Of a stretch of DNA of 64,000 nucleotides, positions 3,209 to 56,544 are shown in pieces. The DNA is from an uncultured Clostridia bacterium (GTDB taxonomy: Bacteria > Bacillota > Clostridia > TANB77 > CAG-508): the NCBI GenBank assembly GCA_944390405.1, contig CALXPS010000001.1, positions 18,300 through 82,299 on the forward strand, read 5' to 3'. Made by a program: the position numbers and the translations under genes. Each line of letters begins with the position of its first letter. Within the stretch, counting starts at the first letter, position 1. The notes under the pieces were generated by a model. The model saw nothing but the letters and a program-made list of their open reading frames with translations, made no database searches and was not told the origin of the DNA.

Positions 3209-3288
3209 CAAATTATAAAAAAATGAGTCTGTTTCCCATTTTAAAGTGGATTAAATAACAGACTCAAAATTTTAATGCATTTTATCTA
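3209..3288. repeat. 80-bp direct repeat copy 2; on the minus strand it reads stem-loop plus TTTTTTT, a rho-independent terminator of cotJC
   Basis: Reverse complement gives GAGTCTGTT-loop-AACAGACTC followed by ATTTTTTT directly after the cotJC stop (3282-3284). Confidence 0.8.
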
Positions 3289-3887
3289 TTGAACATACAA
3301 TTATTATCATTCATATAAAACTTCTTTTCAGCTAATTTTTCTTGAACACCACGTAAAGCTTCACCAAATCTTTGGAAGTGAACTACTTCTCTTTCTCTTA
3401 AGAAACGAAGAGGGTCGATGACATCTGGTTCATCTTTACAAAGGTCAATTAATTTTTCATATGTTGCACGAGCTTTTTGTTCGGCAGCTAAATCTTCCTG
3501 TAAATCAGCGATAGGATCTCCTTTGACAGCAATATATGCAGCAGTAAATGGATTACCAGCAGCAGATTGTGGATATACACCTAGACCATGGTCAGTGTAA
3601 TAATCTCCTAATCCTTCTTTTTTTATAGTTTCTGCATCAACACCCTCTGTTAATTGATGGACAATAGTTCCAACCATTTCTAAGTGTGCTAATTCTTCTG
3701 TACCAATATCATTTAAAATAGCTTTAGCTTTTTGATCTGGCATACCAAATCTTTGTGATAAATATCTTAAAGAAGCAGCAAGTTCTCCATCAGGTCCACC
3801 ATATTGAGATATAATAAATTTTGCAAGTTTAGGATTTGGGCATTTAATATTTATAGGATATTCAAGAGTTTTATTATAAGTCCACAT
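3282..3887 (-). CDS. cotJC: Spore coat protein CotJC (manganese catalase family); the ORF track extends to 3914, but the canonical MW start is the ATG at 3885-3887
   Basis: MWTYNKTLEYPINIK start typical of CotJC; Mn-catalase-type EELAHLE / ELxxHE motifs; RBS GGGGGA 8 nt upstream. Confidence 0.85.
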   Translation of the reverse strand: MWTYNKTLEYPINIKCPNPKLAKFIISQYGGPDGELAASLRYLSQRFGMPDQKAKAILNDIGTEELAHLEMVGTIVHQLTEGVDAETIKKEGLGDYYTDHGLGVYPQSAAGNPFTAAYIAVKGDPIADLQEDLAAEQKARATYEKLIDLCKDEPDVIDPLRFLREREVVHFQRFGEALRGVQEKLAEKKFYMNDNNCMFNR

Positions 3888-3987
3888 TAATAATTCCCCC
3901 TTTCCCAAGGCCACCCTTGGTTAATGATAGGAGTATATTTTTATATTATAAATTTTATTGGAGCTGATGAGCATGTGAGATATTAAA

Positions 3988-4023
3988 AATGTGTTCGCTC
4001 TAGTTATAAAAGATGAGGGCAAA
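3988..4023 (+). pseudogene. Fragment homologous to an internal segment of the recombinase gene (zinc-ribbon region, encodes CVRSSYKR then stop)
   Basis: atgtgttcgctctagttataaaagatgagggcaaag matches recombinase 9213-9250 atgtgtttgctctagttataaaagaggaggagcaaag. Confidence 0.4.
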
Positions 4024-4161
4024 GAAAAAAATTATATAAAAAAGCTTTTACAGTCTGATACTCTGAATAAAATTGTTTACGGATAATGATAAGAAAGTGG
4101 AAAACTATTGAAGTAATTATATAAGGAATACATTAGTCATAAAGGATAAGATTTATGACTA

Positions 4162-4280
4162 TTTTTTTATTGTATAAGAAAAATCGAAGATTTTTACGTA
4201 TACAACAAGGTTAAGTTTCCTTGGGCTGTGCATATTTGCGAAGCAAAATGTACATGTGGTGAACCCACTTTTCTTATGAA
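4162..4280. repeat. 118-bp conserved noncoding block copy 1 (T-run, imperfect palindrome GTATAAGAAAAATC-GAA-GATTTTTACGTATAC, then a conserved 70 bp)
   Basis: About 90% identical to 48923-49040; both copies sit directly after a terminator hairpin. Confidence 0.7.
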
Positions 4281-4541
4281 CTGACTATAAAATTAGGTTA
4301 AATGAGAAGTAAGTATATAAATTTAAACAATTAATATAAAAAAATAAATAATAAAGAAAAAATATGTGACTTTATGCAATTTGAATCGTATAACATATGG
4401 AAAAAGTATAAATAACTTTTTATACTTAAGTTTTTAAAGCTATACAATAATTAATTTAAAGTACATAAAAGAAGGCATAAATTAAAATATATAATATAAA
4501 AGGGGGGAGTATGTAAAAATATATCATAAGAAAGAAGATTT

Positions 4542-5111
4542 ATGAAAATGAAAAAAATGTGGATTTTATCTATTTTATTATGTTGTTTATTACTATCAAC
4601 AAGTGTATTTGCTTATAATCCAATTGGAGGGAAATTTTCGAGAGGAGTTAGTAATACGTGTTATTATGTAGATTCTACCGCAAGTGCATATACAACAAGA
4701 ATAAACGCAGCAGCAAATAATTGGGTCAATACTGGTCATGGTTGGAATCCTATATATATGACACCAGTTTCTTCAAGCTATTTAACCCATATGGATTTTT
4801 ATGGAAAGACGACCTCTTTCTGGGGAGATTCTAACATAAGAGGAGAAACGAGAATGTTTACTAATTCTGGTCAAGATATTACAAGTAAAGCACATAACAC
4901 AAATTGGATGTATGCAGAAATATATGTAAATACAAGTGTGGTGTCAACTAACACAATTCAAACTCAAGGAACATTTGCGCATGAAATGGGGCATGCTTTT
5001 GGATTAGATCACGTATCAAATGTAAATGCTTTAATGCATAGATATTCAAATGAAAGATTAACACATGTTGTTTCATTAGATGAACATAATGGAATTAATG
5101 CATTATATTAA
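4542..5111 (+). CDS. Secreted zinc metalloprotease (metzincin, snapalysin/matrixin-like)
   Basis: N-terminal signal peptide; HEMGHAFGLDH = HExxHxxGxxH zinc-binding motif. Confidence 0.75.
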   Translation: MKMKKMWILSILLCCLLLSTSVFAYNPIGGKFSRGVSNTCYYVDSTASAYTTRINAAANNWVNTGHGWNPIYMTPVSSSYLTHMDFYGKTTSFWGDSNIRGETRMFTNSGQDITSKAHNTNWMYAEIYVNTSVVSTNTIQTQGTFAHEMGHAFGLDHVSNVNALMHRYSNERLTHVVSLDEHNGINALY

Positions 5112-5123
5112 GAGGAGGTTTAT

Positions 5124-5846
5124 ATGAGAAGTAAAAGATTGATAATTTTTATAATTATAGTTTCTACTATCATAGTTGTAAGTAGTATTGCTATTTTAGG
5201 TAAACAAAAATCTAAAAATGTAATCGCCAAAGATAATAAAGAACAGATTAATATAAACGATAATTCAAGTATTGAAAAAAATATAGAGGATAATGTCGTT
5301 TTAACATTAGGTTCAAATTATGATATATATAAAATGAGTGAAGAAGAAATTATGAACGACGACAAATATTATGTTGTAATAGGAAAAGTTACATCTATCG
5401 ATGGTGCAACAAATTACAGCGAAGCGACTAACAAATACACAACAATATTTACATTAGGCAAAATGGAAGTGCTGAAAGATATAAAAGGCAATATGCAGAA
5501 TAATTCAATAGACATAATGAAAAGAGGCGGACAGATTTCATTAGAACAATATGAAAAAAGTTTAAGTGAAAGTCAAAAGCAAAAAGAAGCATACCAAAAT
5601 TTATTAAATAAATATTCTAAACAAAAAGCAACTGTTAAGGTAGAAGCAAAAAGTTTAGATGAAGTTGATATCGAATTGAATAAAGAATATTTATTTGTAT
5701 TATCATATAATGAAGACTATAATAGATATTTAATTAATGCCTTCCCATATGCATTAAGAGAGGTAAAAATAGAAGGTTCAAAAATCTATTATAAAAATAA
5801 CGAGACAAAAACATTCGAAGAATTTTCTAATTTAAATGATATGTAA
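5124..5846 (+). CDS. Membrane-anchored hypothetical protein (N-terminal TM/signal anchor), translationally coupled to the metalloprotease
   Basis: AGGAGG RBS 7 nt upstream; hydrophobic N-terminus IIFIIIVSTIIVVSSIAIL; no recognisable domain. Confidence 0.5.
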   Translation: MRSKRLIIFIIIVSTIIVVSSIAILGKQKSKNVIAKDNKEQININDNSSIEKNIEDNVVLTLGSNYDIYKMSEEEIMNDDKYYVVIGKVTSIDGATNYSEATNKYTTIFTLGKMEVLKDIKGNMQNNSIDIMKRGGQISLEQYEKSLSESQKQKEAYQNLLNKYSKQKATVKVEAKSLDEVDIELNKEYLFVLSYNEDYNRYLINAFPYALREVKIEGSKIYYKNNETKTFEEFSNLNDM

Positions 5847-6015
5847 ATAAATAAAATTTTGACATTGTTTAGCTAGCATGCTAAAATGGAATAACAAGTA
5901 ATATTAAAGTGGTATTTAATTTTATAATGCCACTTTAATAAGAAAAGACTAATGTAGGTCTTTCTTATGTCACTTTTTTGTTGTACACAGAAAATTTTAT
6001 ATAGGGGCAATATAA

Positions 6016-7680
6016 TTGTCAAATTTTCCTATACAATGCAAAAGCAATCATGTTAAGATAAATGGAGATAAGATGGAAGAAGATAAATATTTATATAAGG
6101 AATTTATTAATGGAAATAATCAAGCTTTTGAACAATTAATTATGAAATATAAAACAAATATTATTTATTTTATAACCAGATATGTAAAAAGTATTGAAAT
6201 TGCAGAAGATATTTTTCAAGATGTTATTATATATATATTAGAAAAAAAAGAAAGATATAATTTTAAATATTCTTTGAAAACATATATGTATATGATAGCA
6301 AAATCAAAATCTCTCGACTATATAAAGAGTGAGAAACAAATTGGAAATATAGAGGATCAAGAATTCCATGAAGGAGAGTTATTAGAAGAAATAGTAATTA
6401 GTAAGTATAGAAAAAAAGAAATTCAAAAAGCAATAAATAAATTACCAACAGACTATCAAATAGCAATATATTTAACACAGATAGAAGAACTTTCGTATAA
6501 AGAGACTGCTAAAATTATGGAAAAAACGGAAAGACAAATAAAGACACTTGTATATAATGCTAAGAAGAAGTTGAAAAAAATATTTATAGAAGAAAAATTA
6601 GTTGAGGTAAATGGAACAAAAATTATAAAAGTTTTTATGATGTTTATTATAATGATAGTTATGTTTACAGGAATATGCTATGCTACGTTTAAAATATATA
6701 TGAAGATAACAGGGAAAGCTAGTATAGTACCTACATATACTGAAAAGATTGGAAATACCGATATGAATGTAATTTGGGGAGGAAACTTTCAAATAGCTTG
6801 GAATGAATTTATTGAAACTGTAATCGGAAGAGAGATTAAATTTACAGATAAAGATTCTGAAATAGTAAGAGAACTTAATAAAAAAACATTTACCAAAAAT
6901 ATGATATCTAATGATGGATATTATTTAAAAATAGGAAAAACATCGCCAAATTTAAAAAATGAGATAATACAAGAAATAAGCGAAAAGTTTGGATTGGAAA
7001 ACATAGAAAATTTAAATAAAGTAAATTTTGAAGAAAAAGATGGCAGTTATACTATTTATTCACTATTATTTAAAAAATTTGAATTTTTAACATCTTTTGA
7101 TAGATTATCAAATCAAAATTTTGGAAATAGTATGGAAGAAGTAAAATATTTTGGTATAAATAATGCCAGTGATGAAAACTTAAATAAAAACTTAACAATC
7201 TTATTTTATAATGGAAAAGAATATGCTGTAAAATTATTTACAAAGGGAAATGATGAGATAATTTTATATAGAACTGACTCTAATGAACCATTTGACAAAA
7301 TTTATAATAATATGTTAGATAATTCTAAAACATTTGCAGGAGACAAAGACTTTAAAAAATCAGATGAACTAAGAATTGCATATATAGAAGTTGATACATT
7401 AATAAATTATGATGAATTATGCGGACATTTTATAGAAGAAGAGGAAGGTGTTTATATAACAAATGCGTTACAAAATATTAAATTTTCTTTTAATGAAAGT
7501 GGGGTGAACTTGACAAGTACAGCAGACATTAAAGCATCACGTAATTTCGAACTTAGTGAAAGTAGGTATTTTGATTATAGTGATTCATTTGTAATTTTTA
7601 TCAAAGAAAGAGAAGAAAATATTCCGTATTTTGCATTAAAGGTAGATAATACAGATATATTAGTATCAGCAGAACAATAA
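6016..7680 (+). CDS. Membrane-tethered sigma-70-family protein: N-terminal sigma region 2 + region 4 (ECF/TcdR-like, ~190 aa), one TM helix, ~340-aa extracytoplasmic domain; likely start ATG 6073
   Basis: Region-2-like YLYKEF...IFQDVIIYILEK and region-4 HTH LSYKETAKIMEKTERQIKTLVYNAKKKL; TM FMMFIIMIVMFTGICYATF; GGAG 5 nt before ATG 6073. Confidence 0.6.
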   Translation: MSNFPIQCKSNHVKINGDKMEEDKYLYKEFINGNNQAFEQLIMKYKTNIIYFITRYVKSIEIAEDIFQDVIIYILEKKERYNFKYSLKTYMYMIAKSKSLDYIKSEKQIGNIEDQEFHEGELLEEIVISKYRKKEIQKAINKLPTDYQIAIYLTQIEELSYKETAKIMEKTERQIKTLVYNAKKKLKKIFIEEKLVEVNGTKIIKVFMMFIIMIVMFTGICYATFKIYMKITGKASIVPTYTEKIGNTDMNVIWGGNFQIAWNEFIETVIGREIKFTDKDSEIVRELNKKTFTKNMISNDGYYLKIGKTSPNLKNEIIQEISEKFGLENIENLNKVNFEEKDGSYTIYSLLFKKFEFLTSFDRLSNQNFGNSMEEVKYFGINNASDENLNKNLTILFYNGKEYAVKLFTKGNDEIILYRTDSNEPFDKIYNNMLDNSKTFAGDKDFKKSDELRIAYIEVDTLINYDELCGHFIEEEEGVYITNALQNIKFSFNESGVNLTSTADIKASRNFELSESRYFDYSDSFVIFIKEREENIPYFALKVDNTDILVSAEQ

Positions 7681-7749
7681 AATTTTCATTGTTTTTATTT
7701 GTTTTGAGCAATTTTTTTCTTAATATATTTATTTTAATACAGTTTATTA

Positions 7750-7800
7750 AAACACCAAAAGCAAACAGTAGAGCATGTTTGTTTTTGGTGTTTTTATTTT
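7750..7800 (+). terminator. Rho-independent terminator after the sigma-fusion gene
   Basis: AACACCAAAAGCAAACA...TGTTTGTTTTTGGTGTT stem followed by TTTATTTT. Confidence 0.6.
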
Positions 7801-7952
7801 ATCTAATTTTAAAACAAAGTAAAAAATACAATAAAAAAACAAAGTACATCTGATTTTCAAATCTTGAGAGTAATGCATGAACAAGAAATCAATAAAATGG
7901 AAAAATTAATAATAAAATTTTAAGGAGCATATAGTTAATTAGAGGTGATTTC

Positions 7953-8096
7953 ATGATTAATAAATACGAAGAAATATATGCAAAAGATAAATGTGATATA
8001 ACACAGTTAGTTCAAGATTGGATAGATGAAAATATAAGTGAATTTTATTGCAATAATTCAGAAACAGAGTTAAAATATAACCAAATAGATAGATAG
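7953..8096 (+). CDS. Small ORF (47 aa) immediately upstream of the recombinase; possible directionality factor
   Basis: RBS AGAGGTGA 5 nt upstream of the ATG; no detectable homology; position only. Confidence 0.25.
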   Translation: MINKYEEIYAKDKCDITQLVQDWIDENISEFYCNNSETELKYNQIDR

Positions 8097-8131
8097 TTAT
8101 TATAAATAATGCTTAGGAAAGGGGAAAATGA

Positions 8132-9736
8132 ATGTATGAGTTATATAATAACTATAATAATTACTTTATGAATAATACTGATAAAAATATTATATGGAAT
8201 GTAGGAATTTATACTAGATTATCAAGAGAAGATGAGAAGGAACCACAATTCAACAAACAATCAGAAAGTATTGAAAATCAGATAAAATTTTTAAATGGAT
8301 ATGTGAAATGTCAAGGCTGGAATATTGTTAAAACATATATAGATGATGGATTTAGCGGAACTAATTTTGATAGACCAGATTTTAAAAATATGATTTCAGA
8401 TATAGAAAACAAAGTAATCAACATGGTAATAACAAAGGATTTGTCAAGACTAGGTAGAGACTATATTGATACAGGCTATTATATAGAAAAATACTTTCCC
8501 TCTAAACATATAAGATATATAGCAGTTAATGATAATGTAGATACTTTTGATGCTAATAATAGCAATAATGATATGACTCCATTTAAAGCTGTTACAAATG
8601 ATATGTATGCCAAAGATACTTCAAAAAAAGTTAGAACAGCATTAATGACTAAAGCAGTAAATGGAGAGAGTATAAAGCCATTTCAACCATATGGTTACAA
8701 GAAGGATCCAAACAATAAAAATAGAGTGATTGTTGACAGAGTAGTTTCAGAAAATGTAGTAAGAATATTTGATATGTATAAAGCAGGCAAAACAAAGAAA
8801 GAAATATGCAATTATCTTAATGAAAACAATATAGTTACGCCATTAAAATATAAGGAAGAAACAACAAATTATAGAAACCCAAATAAAAGATTCTATATAT
8901 GGACAAATACGATGATAACTAAGATATTAAGGGACAGAATTTATACAGGAGATTTAGAACAACATAAACATACAAAGATAAATTATAAAGTAAAGAAATC
9001 GATAAAAGTAAATCCTCAACAGCATATTATTATTGAAAACAATCACGAACCAATAATCGATAAAAATACATTTTATACTGTACAGAAAATGCTGGACAAA
9101 CAAGCAAATGAATGGAATTATACATCTAGTAAACCACATTTACTTAAAGGTTTAGTTTTTTGCAGTTGTGGAGCAAGAGTCACATATAATAAAAATCATG
9201 GACAATATTTCAGATGTGTTTGCTCTAGTTATAAAAGAGGAGGAGCAAAGTTTTGTAATAATATCCAATATTTAAGAGAAGATGAACTGATTTCTAAAGT
9301 ATTAGAAAGTCTAAAAATCAATGTTAATAAATATCTAGATTACCAAAGACTAGACTGTAATAGAAGGAACAATAAAAAGAAAGATACTAAAACTGATGAA
9401 ATAAAAAAACAAATAGAAATATTAGATAGAAAAATAAAAACAATTTATGAGGACAAATTAAATAATATTATTTCAGTAGAAATGTTTGTAACTTTGTCAA
9501 GTAGTTATGAAAAACAAAAATCTGATTTAAAAAACATGCTAGAAAATATTAACACAAAAGTGGAAGACGAAAAACAGATACCATTTAAAAGTATGGAAGA
9601 TTACATAAAAGAAGTACTGCAGTTTAATAATCCAGACAAAGTGGATAGAAACTTATTATTAAAATTAATAGACAAAATTGTAATCGAAAATAAAGAAATA
9701 AAAAGTATTACTTATAATTTTAGCATTCCTAGTTAA
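8132..9736 (+). CDS. Large serine recombinase (SpoIVCA/CisA-like)
   Basis: Resolvase catalytic domain YTRLSREDE with Ser nucleophile and DLSRLGRD; recombinase domain; zinc ribbon CSCG...CVCS; C-terminal coiled coil. Confidence 0.9.
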   Translation: MYELYNNYNNYFMNNTDKNIIWNVGIYTRLSREDEKEPQFNKQSESIENQIKFLNGYVKCQGWNIVKTYIDDGFSGTNFDRPDFKNMISDIENKVINMVITKDLSRLGRDYIDTGYYIEKYFPSKHIRYIAVNDNVDTFDANNSNNDMTPFKAVTNDMYAKDTSKKVRTALMTKAVNGESIKPFQPYGYKKDPNNKNRVIVDRVVSENVVRIFDMYKAGKTKKEICNYLNENNIVTPLKYKEETTNYRNPNKRFYIWTNTMITKILRDRIYTGDLEQHKHTKINYKVKKSIKVNPQQHIIIENNHEPIIDKNTFYTVQKMLDKQANEWNYTSSKPHLLKGLVFCSCGARVTYNKNHGQYFRCVCSSYKRGGAKFCNNIQYLREDELISKVLESLKINVNKYLDYQRLDCNRRNNKKKDTKTDEIKKQIEILDRKIKTIYEDKLNNIISVEMFVTLSSSYEKQKSDLKNMLENINTKVEDEKQIPFKSMEDYIKEVLQFNNPDKVDRNLLLKLIDKIVIENKEIKSITYNFSIPS

Positions 9737-9740
9737 AATC
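9681..9740. repeat. ~60-bp direct repeat copy A (3' end of the recombinase gene); partner at 10545-10601
   Basis: gaaaataaagaaataaaaagtattacttataattttagcattcctagttaaaatc versus gaaaataaaaaataaaaagcattacttataattttagcattcctagtcaaaata. Confidence 0.75.
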
Positions 9741-9820
9741 TAATAAAATATTGGTAATTTTTAATAAAATATGTTATACTAATTATATATTATAAAAGGA
9801 ATAAAAAAGGAGGAGATAAT

Positions 9821-10171
9821 ATGTCTAATGTACCAGCCAATATTAGCAATATAATAGATGAATTTGTTAAAGGCGTAAATGCAATATTAGGAGATAGAGT
9901 TAAGAAGATAATACTTTATGGCTCTTATGCTCGAGGAGATTATGATAAAAGTTCAGATATAGATATTATGATTTTAACAGATTTAAACGATGATGAAATT
10001 CTTGAATATCGAGAAAAAATATTAGACTATGCTTATGATATTGAATGGAACAATAACTTTGATATTGTTGTATCTCCTTTAATAAAAAATATAGATAAGT
10101 ATAATAAGAGAATAGATGTAATACCATTTTATATGAATATTCAAAGAGAAGGAGTGGTTATAAATGGATGA
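9821..10171 (+). CDS. Minimal nucleotidyltransferase (MNT) domain protein, antitoxin-like
   Basis: GSYARGDYDKSSDIDIMIL = GS...DxD nucleotidyltransferase motif. Confidence 0.75.
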   Translation: MSNVPANISNIIDEFVKGVNAILGDRVKKIILYGSYARGDYDKSSDIDIMILTDLNDDEILEYREKILDYAYDIEWNNNFDIVVSPLIKNIDKYNKRIDVIPFYMNIQREGVVING

Positions 10172-10565
10172 TGAAGTTACACCATTAAGCTTTGCAAGAT
10201 ACAGATTAGAAAGAGCAAAAGAAGATTTAAAAGCAGCCGAGCTATTATACAAAAATGATAGTTTCTTAGCTGCAAATAATAGAGCATATTATGCAATCTT
10301 TCGTGCAATTAGAGCTGTATTGGCTTTAGAAAGAGTAGATTTTAAAAGGCATAAAGATGTGATTGGATATTTTAATCATCATTATGTAAAAACAGAGATT
10401 TTTCCAAAAATGATAAGTAAGAAAATAGGACAAGCAAGTAAAGTAAGAGAAGATAGTGATTACGATGATGAGTATATTCCAGATGCAGAAAAAACAAAAA
10501 TTCAAATTGATACAGCTAGCGAAGTAATAGAATTAGTAGAAAAATACATAGAAAATAAAAAATAA
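10164..10565 (+). CDS. HEPN domain protein, partner of the MNT protein (8-nt overlap)
   Basis: Overlapping start ATGGATGA; helical protein of HEPN size; R/H-rich stretch FKRHKDVIGYFNHH. Confidence 0.55.
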   Translation: MDDEVTPLSFARYRLERAKEDLKAAELLYKNDSFLAANNRAYYAIFRAIRAVLALERVDFKRHKDVIGYFNHHYVKTEIFPKMISKKIGQASKVREDSDYDDEYIPDAEKTKIQIDTASEVIELVEKYIENKK

Positions 10566-10601
10566 AAAGCATTACTTATAATTTTAGCATTCCTAGTCAA
10601 A
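10545..10601. repeat. ~60-bp direct repeat copy B at the right end of the element; overlaps the HEPN stop and the element-derived cotJB tail
   Basis: see 9681-9740. Confidence 0.75.
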
Positions 10602-10979
10602 ATAGGAATAATTTACTCCCAAATTGAACCAAGGCCATGGTTCTTCAAGCCATCTCCACTTATTGCAAGGGTAATGAATTGTAAGAGGACCATAAACTTT
10701 TTGATATTTATCCATAATTTCTCTTAATTGTTTTGAATAATGGTTATGCAAACATAGAGCTCTTCTATCATCTGGATGTGTATTTAAATATAGAGAAAGT
10801 TCAATAACAGCAAAATTCAATTCTTTAATTTTCATAATCATTTCTTCACGCTTGCAGTCTCTAGGACATTCTTGCATTTCAGGTAATTCCATAGTAGGTA
10901 GAGCTTCTTCAGGAGTACTATTCTTACCGCAATCGCACTTATAATTACAATTTCTTTTTTCATTACAAGACTCTAACAT
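10593..10979 (-). CDS. cotJB: Spore coat protein CotJB, 3' end interrupted; the last 11 codons (FNLGVNYSYFD) are supplied by element DNA
   Basis: CotJB family motif ELNFAVIELSLYLNTHPDDRRAL...YGPL; native C-terminus (PWPW-ERGNY-stop overlapping the cotJC ATG) lies 6.7 kb away at 3888-3913. Confidence 0.8.
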   Translation of the reverse strand: MLESCNEKRNCNYKCDCGKNSTPEEALPTMELPEMQECPRDCKREEMIMKIKELNFAVIELSLYLNTHPDDRRALCLHNHYSKQLREIMDKYQKVYGPLTIHYPCNKWRWLEEPWPWFNLGVNYSYFD

Positions 10980-11329
10980 TTATTACATCCCTCCCCAATA
11001 GAATTTCTTCTTCTTAAATATTCGTTTTCAGCCATGGATTGACCAGGCATATAAGGACTAACAAGTTCTGGGAATATAGTACCCATTTTTAGTCCTACAC
11101 AAGGTATAAAGGTTCTATCCATGGCTTGAATAGGTACATAACTTTGTGCTAAAACAGGATCTTCAGGAAATGCAATATATTCATCAAACCCACATTCACA
11201 GTCGTCATACATACCAAGAGTATTTTCAACATCACAACAAGTTTCTTCGAAACAATTTTCATAGTTCGAAGTTACATTATTATTATTCCAGTTGCTTTTA
11301 CATTTACAGCATTTTCTATACATTAACAA
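10973..11329 (-). CDS. cotJA: Spore coat-associated protein CotJA
   Basis: LAQSYVPIQ...GTIFPELVSPY matches the CotJA family core. Confidence 0.75.
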   Translation of the reverse strand: MLMYRKCCKCKSNWNNNNVTSNYENCFEETCCDVENTLGMYDDCECGFDEYIAFPEDPVLAQSYVPIQAMDRTFIPCVGLKMGTIFPELVSPYMPGQSMAENEYLRRRNSIGEGCNKC

Positions 11330-55437: not shown

Positions 55438-56544
55438 ATGAGATATTATTTTACATCAGAAAGTGTAACAGAGGGCCATCCAGATAAATTGTGTGACTAT
55501 ATTTCAGACAGTATTTTAGATGAATGTTTAAAACAAGATAAAAATTCCAGAGTTGCAGTAGAAACATTTGCTTCTAAAGACAATATAACAATTGCAGGGC
55601 AAATAACTTCAAATTCGGAATTTAACATAGAAAAATTAACAAGAGAAATAATAAAAAAAATAGGATATGATAATGCTAAAACAGATATAGATTATAGAAC
55701 TTGTAATATTTATACAAATATTACAAAACAAAGTTCCGATATAGCTTTAGGTGTAGATACAGGTGGAGCAGGAGACCAAGGAATGATGTTTGGCTATGCT
55801 TCAAATGAAACCGAAAATTACATGCCATATGCAATAAGCGTGGCACATAGATTATCTCAAAGATTAACTGAGGTGCGCAGAAATGGAGAACTTTCATATT
55901 TAAGACCAGACGGCAAAACTCAAGTAACAGTAGAATATGAAGATGATAAACCAATAAGAATAGAAACAATATTAATATCTACGCAACATACAGAAAATGC
56001 CGATATTACACAACTAAAAAAAGACGTTATAGAAAAAGTTATAAACAAAATAGTGGACCACAATATGATAGATGAAAATACTAAAATATACATTAATCCA
56101 ACAGGAAGATTTGTAATAGGAGGACCTTTAGGAGATACAGGATTAACAGGAAGAAAAATAATAGTAGATACTTATGGAGGATATAGTCGCCATGGAGGAG
56201 GAGCATTTTCAGGTAAAGACCCTAGTAAAGTGGATAGGTCAGCAGCATATATGCTACGACACATAGCAAAAAATATAGTTGCAAATGGATATGCAGATAA
56301 GTGTGAAATACAAATTTCATATGCAATAGGTTTGAAAGAACCAATTTCAATAAATGTTAATACATTTGGAACAAGTAAAAGAACAGATAATGATTTAGTG
56401 CAACTTATTAGAGAAAAATTTGATTTGACTCCAGAGGGAATAATTAACTATTTAGACTTAAAGAACATAAAATATACTGAAACAACAAACTATGGACATT
56501 TTGGAAAAGATAAATTAACTTGGGAAAAAATAATTACATTATAA
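55438..56544 (+). CDS. metK: S-adenosylmethionine synthetase
   Basis: [16 protein letters not shown] and [19 protein letters not shown] signatures. Confidence 0.9.

Follow-up and report, generated by a model that had tools for sequence, protein, structure and literature searches.

Sigma factors of the extracytoplasmic function (ECF) type constitute the third major mode of signaling in bacteria, and for most ECF groups we know of no identified signal. The closest described relatives of the protein reported here are sigma factors joined to a membrane segment. IutY of Pseudomonas putida (ECF243) is a sigma/anti-sigma hybrid whose release by regulated intramembrane proteolysis, involving Prc and RseP, is documented (PMC8999054). 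Release by regulated proteolysis has been proposed for ECF48, ECF52, and ECF53 (PMC8999054; PMC5826349), and ECF52/SCO4117 of Streptomyces coelicolor is autoregulated (PMC5826349, PMC8999054). The 2021 ECF classification lists 19 groups with C-terminal regulatory extensions (SnoaL-like, TPR, Cys-rich, DUF1835, and multiple transmembrane [TM] segments), none of them a serpin (PMC7826278). Here, we describe g3, a gene for an ECF sigma factor fused through one TM helix to a domain with a predicted, divergent serpin fold. It lies on a 64,000-nucleotide stretch of DNA from an uncultured Clostridia bacterium (GenBank assembly GCA_944390405.1, contig CALXPS010000001.1, positions 18,300 to 82,299 of the forward strand; this whole stretch is referred to as the window), within an element integrated in the spore coat gene cotJB. 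Two further genes precede it, g1 for a secreted matrixin-family metalloprotease and g2 for a membrane-anchored protein. A preliminary description, made from the sequence alone, had placed three co-directional genes (4542 to 7680) inside a cotJB element; the three genes are indeed found there, on the plus strand, and empty sites in metagenome contigs back the element itself.

Like IutY, g3 combines an N-terminal ECF sigma factor, a TM segment, and an extracytoplasmic sensing part in one polypeptide and has no separate anti-sigma gene; IutY differs in its FecR-type anti-sigma domain between sigma and membrane, its TonB-dependent cell surface signaling, and its occurrence in Proteobacteria (PMC8999054). 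In g3, only about 15 residues precede the TM helix, the sensor has a predicted serpin fold, and the hosts are Clostridia. ECF52/SCO4117 resembles g3 in joining an ECF sigma factor to a long, membrane-crossing C-terminal extension with an extracytoplasmic end domain (PMC5826349, PMC8999054). It differs in its zinc finger (ZAS-like), proline-rich region, and carbohydrate-binding domain, all of which g3 lacks, and is confined to Actinobacteria. The RsiV/SigV and RsiW/SigW systems of Bacillus subtilis resemble the mechanism proposed below, in that an extracytoplasmic event leads to site-1 cleavage (by signal peptidase for RsiV), then to site-2 cleavage and an active ECF sigma factor; they also have in common with the g3 family a promoter type in which the -35 element contains AAC and the -10 element CGT. 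In these systems, however, the sigma factor and its anti-sigma factor are two proteins, with sensor domains that have no relation to serpins.

The tethered one-component sigma design named in the preliminary description is not without precedent, since the IutY and ECF52 hybrids are known (PMC8999054). We found no description of the g3 architecture in the literature on serpins with sigma or anti-sigma factors or on membrane-tethered sigma factors. The g3 family is a hybrid ECF family without an anti-sigma domain and with a divergent serpin as its sensor, C-terminal extensions of ECF sigma factors being otherwise known. It would add a sensor fold that is not listed among ECF regulatory extensions, in an anti-sigma-free design for which we propose control by tethering alone.

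Sigma domain, tether, and transmembrane helix of g3

The g3 gene (6073 to 7680, plus strand) encodes a 535-residue fusion of ECF sigma factor, TM helix, and serpin-fold domain, as delimited by homologue starts, family profiles, and AlphaFold2 (AF2) modeling. We place its start at ATG 6073 (MEEDK..., with GGAG 8 nucleotides upstream) because all 120 homologues listed, out of 548 significant matches, start at the equivalent position. The length of 554 residues given previously corresponds to a TTG start at 6016, the mechanical maximum of the open reading frame (ORF), and has to be shortened accordingly. The start thus shifts downstream, to ATG 6073, but not beyond the sigma-like region, which is fully retained.

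Residues 1 to 170 (6073 to 6582, plus strand) form the cytoplasmic ECF sigma domain, with regions 2 and 4. Both regions, already recognized in the preliminary description, gave significant Pfam matches (Sigma70_r2, PF04542, E = 5.7e-9; Sigma70_r4_2, PF08281, E = 1.3e-13), and the TIGR02937 sigma70-ECF model scored 83.1 bits against a cutoff of 42.9. Similarly, a profile of the g3 family matched SigW and RpoE structures in the PDB with E values down to 3.6e-23, and in a comparison with PHROGs the sigma part alone found matches. Pfam showed no Sigma70_r3 or r1 match in g3, and no NCBIfam equivalog reached its cutoff. The linker between regions 2 and 4 is about 25 residues long (89 to 113) and is modeled with low AF2 confidence. 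From these domain matches, we classify the g3 sigma factor as ECF type (group 4); of the earlier label "ECF/TcdR-like," the first half stands and the likeness to TcdR does not.

The single TM helix of the earlier description is found by hydropathy scan at residues ~183 to 207 (6619 to 6693, plus strand), where AF2 models a helix from 182 to 213. Only ~15 residues separate the TM start (~183) from the end of region 4 (~residue 167), which leaves no room for an anti-sigma domain. Indeed, g3 has no Pfam match to a zinc finger or FecR anti-sigma domain, and no anti-sigma gene adjoins it at the locus. This short gap and this gene content agree with the view of g3 as a tethered sigma factor in one polypeptide, without a separate anti-sigma.

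The outer end of the TM helix carries a motif that is kept in the family, [ST]G[IV][IV]YA[ST]xKIY, with A204 present in at least 90% of sequences, and the outer half of the helix holds a helix-destabilizing Ser/Thr-Gly. The site-1 protease of RsiV is signal peptidase I, and the TM-exit motif ...[IV][IV]YA, with its conserved V-Y-A, conforms to the -3/-1 rule of this enzyme, as a resemblance only.

The extracytoplasmic domain and its family

The part of g3 beyond the membrane had been described as ~340 residues with no recognizable motifs. Instead, residues ~230 to 535 (~305 residues; 6760 to 7677, plus strand) are predicted to adopt a divergent serpin fold by AF2 modeling, Foldseek, and profile search. 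The first sign came from the sequence, in which ...NALQNIKFSFNESGVNLTST... resembles the serpin s5A/hinge signature and ...FVIFIKEREENIPYFALKV the s4B/s5B signature. In an AF2 model of the g3 family built from 30 members, the predicted local distance difference test (pLDDT) score of residues 230 to 535 is mostly 80 to 93 and falls below 50 in one loop, 478 to 495. All 50 of the top 50 Foldseek matches of this model in the PDB are serpins (best E = 2.6e-9, probability 1.00), aligned over ~370 columns at 10 to 13% identity and including Serpina3n, alpha-1-antitrypsin, antithrombin, PAI-2, and C1-inhibitor. The order of secondary structure elements in the modeled ectodomain is consistent with that of a serpin.

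Sequence profiles lead to the same family. When the g3 family profile was compared with PDB sequences, the only non-sigma matches were antithrombin (E = 0.05) and PAI-1, and profile positions 455 to 515 align in register with antithrombin 355 to 415, the hinge-to-s4B region. The g3 ectodomain itself has no match to the Pfam Serpin family (PF00079). Its stand-alone relatives match PF00079 below threshold, at 18 to 23 bits (gathering score 27) over profile positions 300 to 363 of 370, with an E value of 4.5e-5 for P0148 and of ~1e-3 for P0156 and P0190. Because three independent tests agree (the structure model, the PDB sequence profile, and Pfam on the relatives), we conclude that the ectodomain, as modeled, is a divergent serpin fold.

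Hinge spacing, loop entropy, and low pLDDT mark residues 474 to 498 (7492 to 7566, plus strand) as a hinge and reactive-center-like loop. The family spacing from s5A to the hinge, Q467...E475-x-G477, is that of alpha-1-antitrypsin, where we take the counterpart to be H334...E342-K-G344. From the hinge Gly to the s1C Phe there are 24 residues, also the commonest value among fused members; the distance in alpha-1-antitrypsin is presumably 23. E475 and G477 correspond to the serpin hinge residues Glu (P17) and Gly (P15), with a reactive-center loop of the canonical length (about 17 residues up to P1). Across 129 fused sequences, G477 and S482 never vary, and the conservation of E483 is 89%. The distal loop has an entropy of 2.81 bits, compared to 1.25 to 1.35 bits in its flanks and a whole-domain mean of 1.65. 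A protease bait is expected to show this pattern, a variable loop flanked by a conserved hinge and s1C strand. The family hinge reads G-[GV]-x-[LVI]-x-S-E-A, with Gly/Val at P14, Leu/Val/Ile at P12, Ser at P10, and Glu at P9. Its even-numbered (buried) positions are small or hydrophobic, which makes loop insertion conceivable.

With members of the serpin superfamily (alpha-1-antitrypsin and antithrombin; bacterial siropins and miropin), the g3 ectodomain has in common the predicted fold, the s5A-E-x-G spacing, an exposed variable loop of canonical length, and conserved s1C/s4B/s5B strands. It differs in being smaller (~305 residues, compared to 370 to 400 in canonical serpins, at the low identity given above) and in its hinge, which is G-G-N-L-x-S-E-A in g3 and G-T-E-A-A-A in canonical serpins. 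Further, unlike canonical serpins, it forms part of a fusion with a TM helix and a sigma factor.

The 120 listed homologues of g3 are all full-length fusions (525 to 680 residues, at least 95% coverage, 44 to 79% identity). The sigma-serpin fusion is thereby represented in at least 120 protein clusters from gut Clostridia, and this number of independent clusters with the same architecture rules out an assembly or frameshift artifact. Source names exist for few of the clusters and read simply "sigma-70 family RNA polymerase sigma factor." One variant inside the 90%-identity cluster of g3 occurs in 203 contigs, and a subgroup of the fusions (P0043, P0047-P0057, P0061, and others) is longer by ~100 residues (629 to 646 residues).

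A library search with the ectodomain alone (E up to 1e-3) returned 1,345 clusters at 50% identity. The best 149 of these include ~130 stand-alone secreted or anchored proteins (~335 to 400 residues) and ~10 sigma fusions. Because the stand-alone form dominates the domain family, the sigma fusion, found here in Clostridia, looks derived. The search thus brings to light ~1,300 clusters (50% identity) of divergent bacterial serpin-like proteins that are without annotation from Pfam or source records.

The stand-alone form is common in gut Melainabacteria/Gastranaerophilales. There, the gene repeatedly has two genes on its 5' side and, on its 3' side, a ~455-residue gene that is radA-like by eye (L018, 5244 to 7047; L027, 5283 to 7047; also L019, L020, L025, L028, L029, and L049). 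The first 5' gene (~114 residues) resembles, again by eye, a BlaI/MecI-type winged-helix repressor, and the second encodes 120 to 130 residues. The repressor-like neighbor may represent a different regulatory coupling of the serpin-like domain.

The matrixin cassette, promoters, and a proposed mechanism

The g1 gene (4542 to 5111, plus strand) encodes a secreted, minimal matrixin-family (M10) zinc metalloprotease of 189 residues, ~165 of them in the mature part. The preliminary description had called it a signal-peptide metzincin, and it is borne out by a hydrophobic, signal-peptide-like N terminus (hydropathy scan), a zinc site, HEMGHAFGLDH, followed by an ALM Met-turn, and a score of 34.2 bits against Pfam Peptidase_M10 (PF00413; gathering score 24; E = 2.8e-8). 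Its best PDB matches are the catalytic domains of the matrix metalloproteases (MMPs) MMP-3, MMP-8, and MMP-10, with an alignment that extends to the C terminus (...NGINALY in g1, ...GIQxLY in the MMPs). We found no pro-domain with a cysteine switch (PRCGxPD): the stretch from the signal peptide to the zinc site is only ~115 residues long, and PRCG does not occur in the sequence. Homologues of g1 form 42 clusters of ~190-residue proteins, the "matrixin family metalloproteases" of Clostridia.

The g2 gene (5124 to 5846, plus strand) starts 12 nucleotides past the g1 stop, after a GAGGAGG ribosome-binding site, and encodes a beta-rich protein of 240 residues that is anchored in the membrane by one N-terminal TM segment (residues 1 to 29, hydropathy scan). 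Of its earlier description as translationally coupled, membrane-anchored, and of unassigned fold, the anchor holds; as for coupling, the two genes are close but not overlapping. The AF2 model of g2 is poor (pLDDT 55) and its Foldseek matches, weakly OB-fold-like, are non-significant (best E = 0.028); no fold was assigned. The g2 protein has no match in Pfam, NCBIfam, or PHROG and only 11 close homologues. Remoter homologues are found only immediately 3' of matrixin genes, in L173 and L175, and a hidden Markov model (HMM) of the g2 family matches matrixin-adjacent proteins only. Judged from these neighborhoods, g2 is an obligate neighbor of mini-matrixins; a TIMP-like or inhibitor role would be speculation. 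Two sets of candidate relatives were rejected: the anchored proteins encoded 5' of chromosomal sigma-serpin genes in L005 (196 residues) and L008 (225 residues) have no BLASTP similarity to g2, and hhalign gave a probability of 1% for a g2 domain in the 270-residue protein that follows the stand-alone sigma factor of L171.

When upstream regions of sigma-serpin genes from unrelated loci were aligned, they proved to have an ECF-type promoter in common, nnAACTTTTTT-N10-TYGTATAAT, which ends ~30 nucleotides before the start codon and has AAC in its -35 element and CGT or TGT in its -10 element. The motif is present ~30 nucleotides upstream of the sigma-serpin start in seven distinct loci (L003, L005, L008, L012, L021, L091, and L093), with slightly relaxed spacing or -10 element in L012 and L091. 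Its strict form, RACTTT-N13-YGTATWA, occurs just 5' of the sigma-serpin gene in L003/4, L005-7, L008-10, L021, and L093/4, with few stray matches elsewhere in the 94 loci scanned. The window contains two matches (0.08 expected). One, GACTTT-N13-CGTATAA, lies upstream of g1 (4368 to 4393, plus strand). The other (55710 to 55735, minus strand) is antisense inside metK and was treated as chance, not as a regulon member. In L003/L004, a relative with 59% identity, the motif stands 5' of both g1 and the sigma gene. Because the promoter motif of the family stands in front of g1, the metzincin and g2 are most likely outputs of the sigma factor, and g1 would then not be the protease that releases it.

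Further sites complete the predicted transcription unit. An intrinsic terminator with a 19-bp stem and T-run follows g3 (7749 to 7794, plus strand), and the terminator scan called no canonical terminator between g2 and g3. The gap between these two genes contains a site resembling a sigma-70-type promoter, TTGACA-17-TAAAAT with a TG ahead of the second hexamer (5859 to 5887, plus strand; 11 of 12 consensus matches). The simplest reading of these sites would be the order P(ECF), g1, g2, (sigma-70-type promoter), g3, terminator. The ~185 nucleotides before g3 (5888 to 6072) also hold two AT-rich hairpins, AAAGTGGTAT...ATGCCACTTT and AAGAAAAGAC...GGTCTTTCTT, neither of them called in the terminator scan. 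Their role might be to attenuate read-through from g2 or to give structure to the g3 leader.

The company kept by g1 and g2 elsewhere is in line with an output role. Only the closest clade (~56% identity or more) has them beside the sigma-serpin gene, and there g1-g2-g3 is found in two different mobile elements, the present one and a tyrosine-integrase/Mob element of L003. Neither a matrixin nor g2 was found beside chromosomal sigma-serpin genes of 54% identity or less (five contexts, L005, L008, L091, and L093 among them), and a tblastn scan of the collected loci, L011-L014 included, detected g1 and g2 only in L001, L003, and L004. Matrixin and g2-like cassettes recur in other settings. In L171, the cassette lies beside an ordinary 173-residue ECF sigma factor and a 270-residue TM protein (putative anti-sigma); in the serine-recombinase element of L173 (466 to 7911), two tandem matrixin and g2-like pairs are followed by a 169-residue ECF sigma factor and a 249-residue TM protein; and in L175, the cassette is part of a conjugative element with no sigma factor nearby. 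Since the cassette recurs with different sigma settings, the matrixin/g2 pair appears to be a portable output module driven by different ECF systems, and the serpin fusion would be one of at least two sensor designs for it. L173 points to a family of elements with "ECF system plus matrixin" cargo and interchangeable sensors.

Two other neighborhoods were recorded among the chromosomal sigma-serpin loci. Downstream of the 54%-identity gene of L091 (7686 to 9253) are genes for an anchored 305-residue protein with weak PepSY/YcdB-repeat matches (peptidase-propeptide-like) and for a secreted 215-residue protein whose ...AHGADG...NSCE... resembles a His/Cys peptidase dyad, with no significant family match; this pair may be another "protease plus partner" output. 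In L005 (3738 to 7611), which represents a common chromosomal context, the sigma-serpin gene lies two genes 3' of a Peptidase_M23/Peptidase_M50 pair resembling SpoIVFA/SpoIVFB, with spoIIGA-sigE-sigG nearby. This site-2 protease neighbor could be a coincidence or a functional link.

Our favored account, to which we give about an even chance, is that g3 is a tethered ECF sigma factor with a serpin-fold sensor, that it is released by regulated proteolysis, and that g1 and g2 are its regulon. At rest, the sigma domain would be held at the membrane with little or no activity. The trigger would be extracellular and act on the bait loop, most plausibly through a protease that cleaves or captures it; it would alter or destabilize the ectodomain and so expose a membrane-proximal site-1 cleavage site. 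A site-2 protease would next free the sigma domain, which would drive P(g1) and thereby the production of secreted metzincin, of g2, and, by read-through, of more g3. We are more tentative about a specific form of this account, in which the ectodomain would be a protease-triggered switch, with loop cleavage causing serpin-type insertion or destabilization and then site-1 and site-2 proteolysis that frees the sigma factor.

Several points weigh against release by proteolysis as outlined here. Cleavage, conformational change, and release are inferred steps, and the link between promoter and regulon comes from a motif. A tethered sigma factor could also be active without release. The hinge differs from the Ala-rich inhibitory consensus (Thr/Ser at P14, small residues from P12 to P9), which makes loop insertion uncertain. 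Finally, no ECF motif stands directly upstream of g3 in the window, so autoregulation here would need read-through from P(g1). The sigma-70-like site at 5859 to 5887 may instead be a candidate constitutive promoter of g3, although it is a consensus match only, of a kind that turns up in this AT-rich region as often as expected by chance.

The preliminary description had suggested that the co-located protease releases the sigma domain, which would make g1 the input: it would cleave the g3 ectodomain, for example in the reactive-center-like loop, with g2 as an accessory. MMPs cleave serpin reactive-center loops without being trapped, and the three genes do occur together in two different mobile elements; if g1 were also an output, the result would be a positive-feedback switch. 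We nevertheless consider g1 an improbable input. The promoter motif of the sigma family marks both g1 and g2 as probable outputs, the remoter sigma-serpin genes (54% identity or less) have no matrixin or g2 neighbor, the cassettes also accompany ordinary ECF sigma/putative anti-sigma pairs or no sigma factor at all, and the g1-linked clade shows no special conservation of the loop sequence. In its original form, the suggestion thus lacks support, and a positive-feedback role, in which g1 also cleaves the bait loop, is possible. No likelier, to our minds, is a sigma factor that works while tethered, as ToxR or CadC do, with the serpin-like domain as a non-inhibitory binding module that tunes it by allostery or oligomerization and without proteolysis. 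Non-inhibitory, ligand-binding serpins exist, the hinge deviates from the inhibitory consensus, there is no anti-sigma domain to keep the sigma factor inactive, and the juxtamembrane and TM-exit residues show the conservation that signal transmission would call for. Against this, a tether of ~15 residues would seem to leave little space for a holoenzyme-promoter complex, a hypervariable loop between conserved hinge and s1C is the typical signature of a protease bait, and IutY, the only characterized TM sigma fusion, is released by proteolysis, as is likewise proposed for ECF52 (PMC8999054).

We regard as very improbable that the serpin-like domain is a surface inhibitor of the cell's own or foreign proteases, with the sigma factor regulated independently or the fusion devoid of signaling meaning. 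Serpins do not inhibit metalloproteases by their usual mechanism, and an intact ECF sigma fusion with conserved tether and TM helix in 129 collected sequences is hard to explain without functional coupling, even though stand-alone secreted or anchored proteins make up most of the domain family and there are known serpins of gut bacteria that inhibit host proteases (PMC5127057). Should g3 instead be the protease-triggered switch proposed above, it would act as a bacterial "protease-activated receptor" and convert extracellular proteolysis, by host, competitor, or self, directly into transcription. This would be the first signaling use of the serpin conformational spring in prokaryotes, with hypervariable loops tuning family members to different gut proteases. 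Since serpins act as protease baits, a pointer to the signal comes from the sensor domain itself, which offers a testable route to extracellular protease sensing in gut Clostridia. The architecture suggests that a protease "bait" can serve bacteria as a sensor of extracellular proteases, and the input loop of this compact, single-chain protein might be reprogrammable for synthetic biology.

The host element in cotJB

The window is low in G+C (25 to 30%) and Clostridium-like. A family search of its ORFs identified cotJC (3282 to 3914), cotJB (10593 to 10979), and cotJA (10973 to 11329), all on the minus strand, with cotJC and cotJB split apart by a 6.7-kb block of plus-strand genes. A 9-bp core, CCAAGGCCA, is present in two copies as the crossover region of the attachment site. 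The left copy (3905 to 3913) lies where empty-site alignments stop, at 3913, and the right copy (10629 to 10637), within the cotJB codons ...PWPW, where they begin, at 10629. When the flanks are joined across CCAAGGCCA, the predicted product is an intact cotJB that ends ...EEPWPWERGNY, with a stop codon overlapping the cotJC ATG. The predicted empty junction, CCCAAGGCCATGGTTCTTCAAGCC, is non-contiguous in the window and was found in 76 metagenome contigs, in 73 of which parts of the window could be aligned by blastn. Where both flanks could be aligned (for example, L159, L146, L160, L141, and L102), the sequence up to 3913 and that from 10629 are contiguous, with a 9-bp overlap, and element DNA was absent from all empty-junction contigs aligned to the window. 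Because the predicted empty junction exists in metagenome contigs, we conclude that the element, integrated in the 3' end of cotJB, is real and spans 3914 to 10628 (6,715 bp).

Insertion changes only the last five codons of cotJB, from ERGNY to FNLGVNYSYFD before the stop, and the CotJB Pfam domain is intact. The cotJC gene is no longer in its overlapping, operon-coupled position behind cotJB. Since cotJC is displaced and the CotJB domain intact, the element would influence the spore coat, if at all, mainly through cotJC expression.

The element encodes, in order, g1, g2, g3, a 47-residue ORF, a large serine recombinase, and a nucleotidyltransferase/HEPN pair. The recombinase (534 residues; 8132 to 9736, plus strand) has Resolvase, Recombinase, and Zn_ribbon_recom domains and is 39% identical to the recombinase of the L173 element, whose cargo is matrixin and ECF sigma genes. 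Skin-like intervening elements in sporulation genes are excised by large serine recombinases. The present element has in common with them a large serine recombinase, a precise site in a sporulation (spore coat) operon, and intact sites in relatives; here, however, only the last five cotJB codons are replaced, and cotJB and cotJC are separated. The sporulation link raised previously, through excision in the mother cell, is putative but plausible and is compatible with the insertion site in cotJB. We found no description in the literature of regulatory cargo of the sensor/sigma/protease kind in skin-like elements. This locus indicates that such elements in sporulation genes can bring self-contained regulatory cassettes, with sensor, sigma factor, and protease output.

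Three smaller features of the element were recorded. Between the attachment site and the ECF-type promoter, ~450 bp (3914 to 4367) contain no ORF longer than 38 residues, and an Rfam scan of the whole element gave no match at E values up to 1. The 47-residue ORF (7953 to 8096, plus strand), just 5' of the serine recombinase gene, is also called in the identical element copies L001 and L002; it has no match in a PHROG search and might be a candidate recombination directionality factor. At the right end of the element (9821 to 10565, plus strand), the genes for a nucleotidyltransferase (116 residues; NTP_transf_2) and a HEPN protein (133 residues) have overlapping ends, an architecture of the MNT/HepT toxin-antitoxin type that could stabilize the element.

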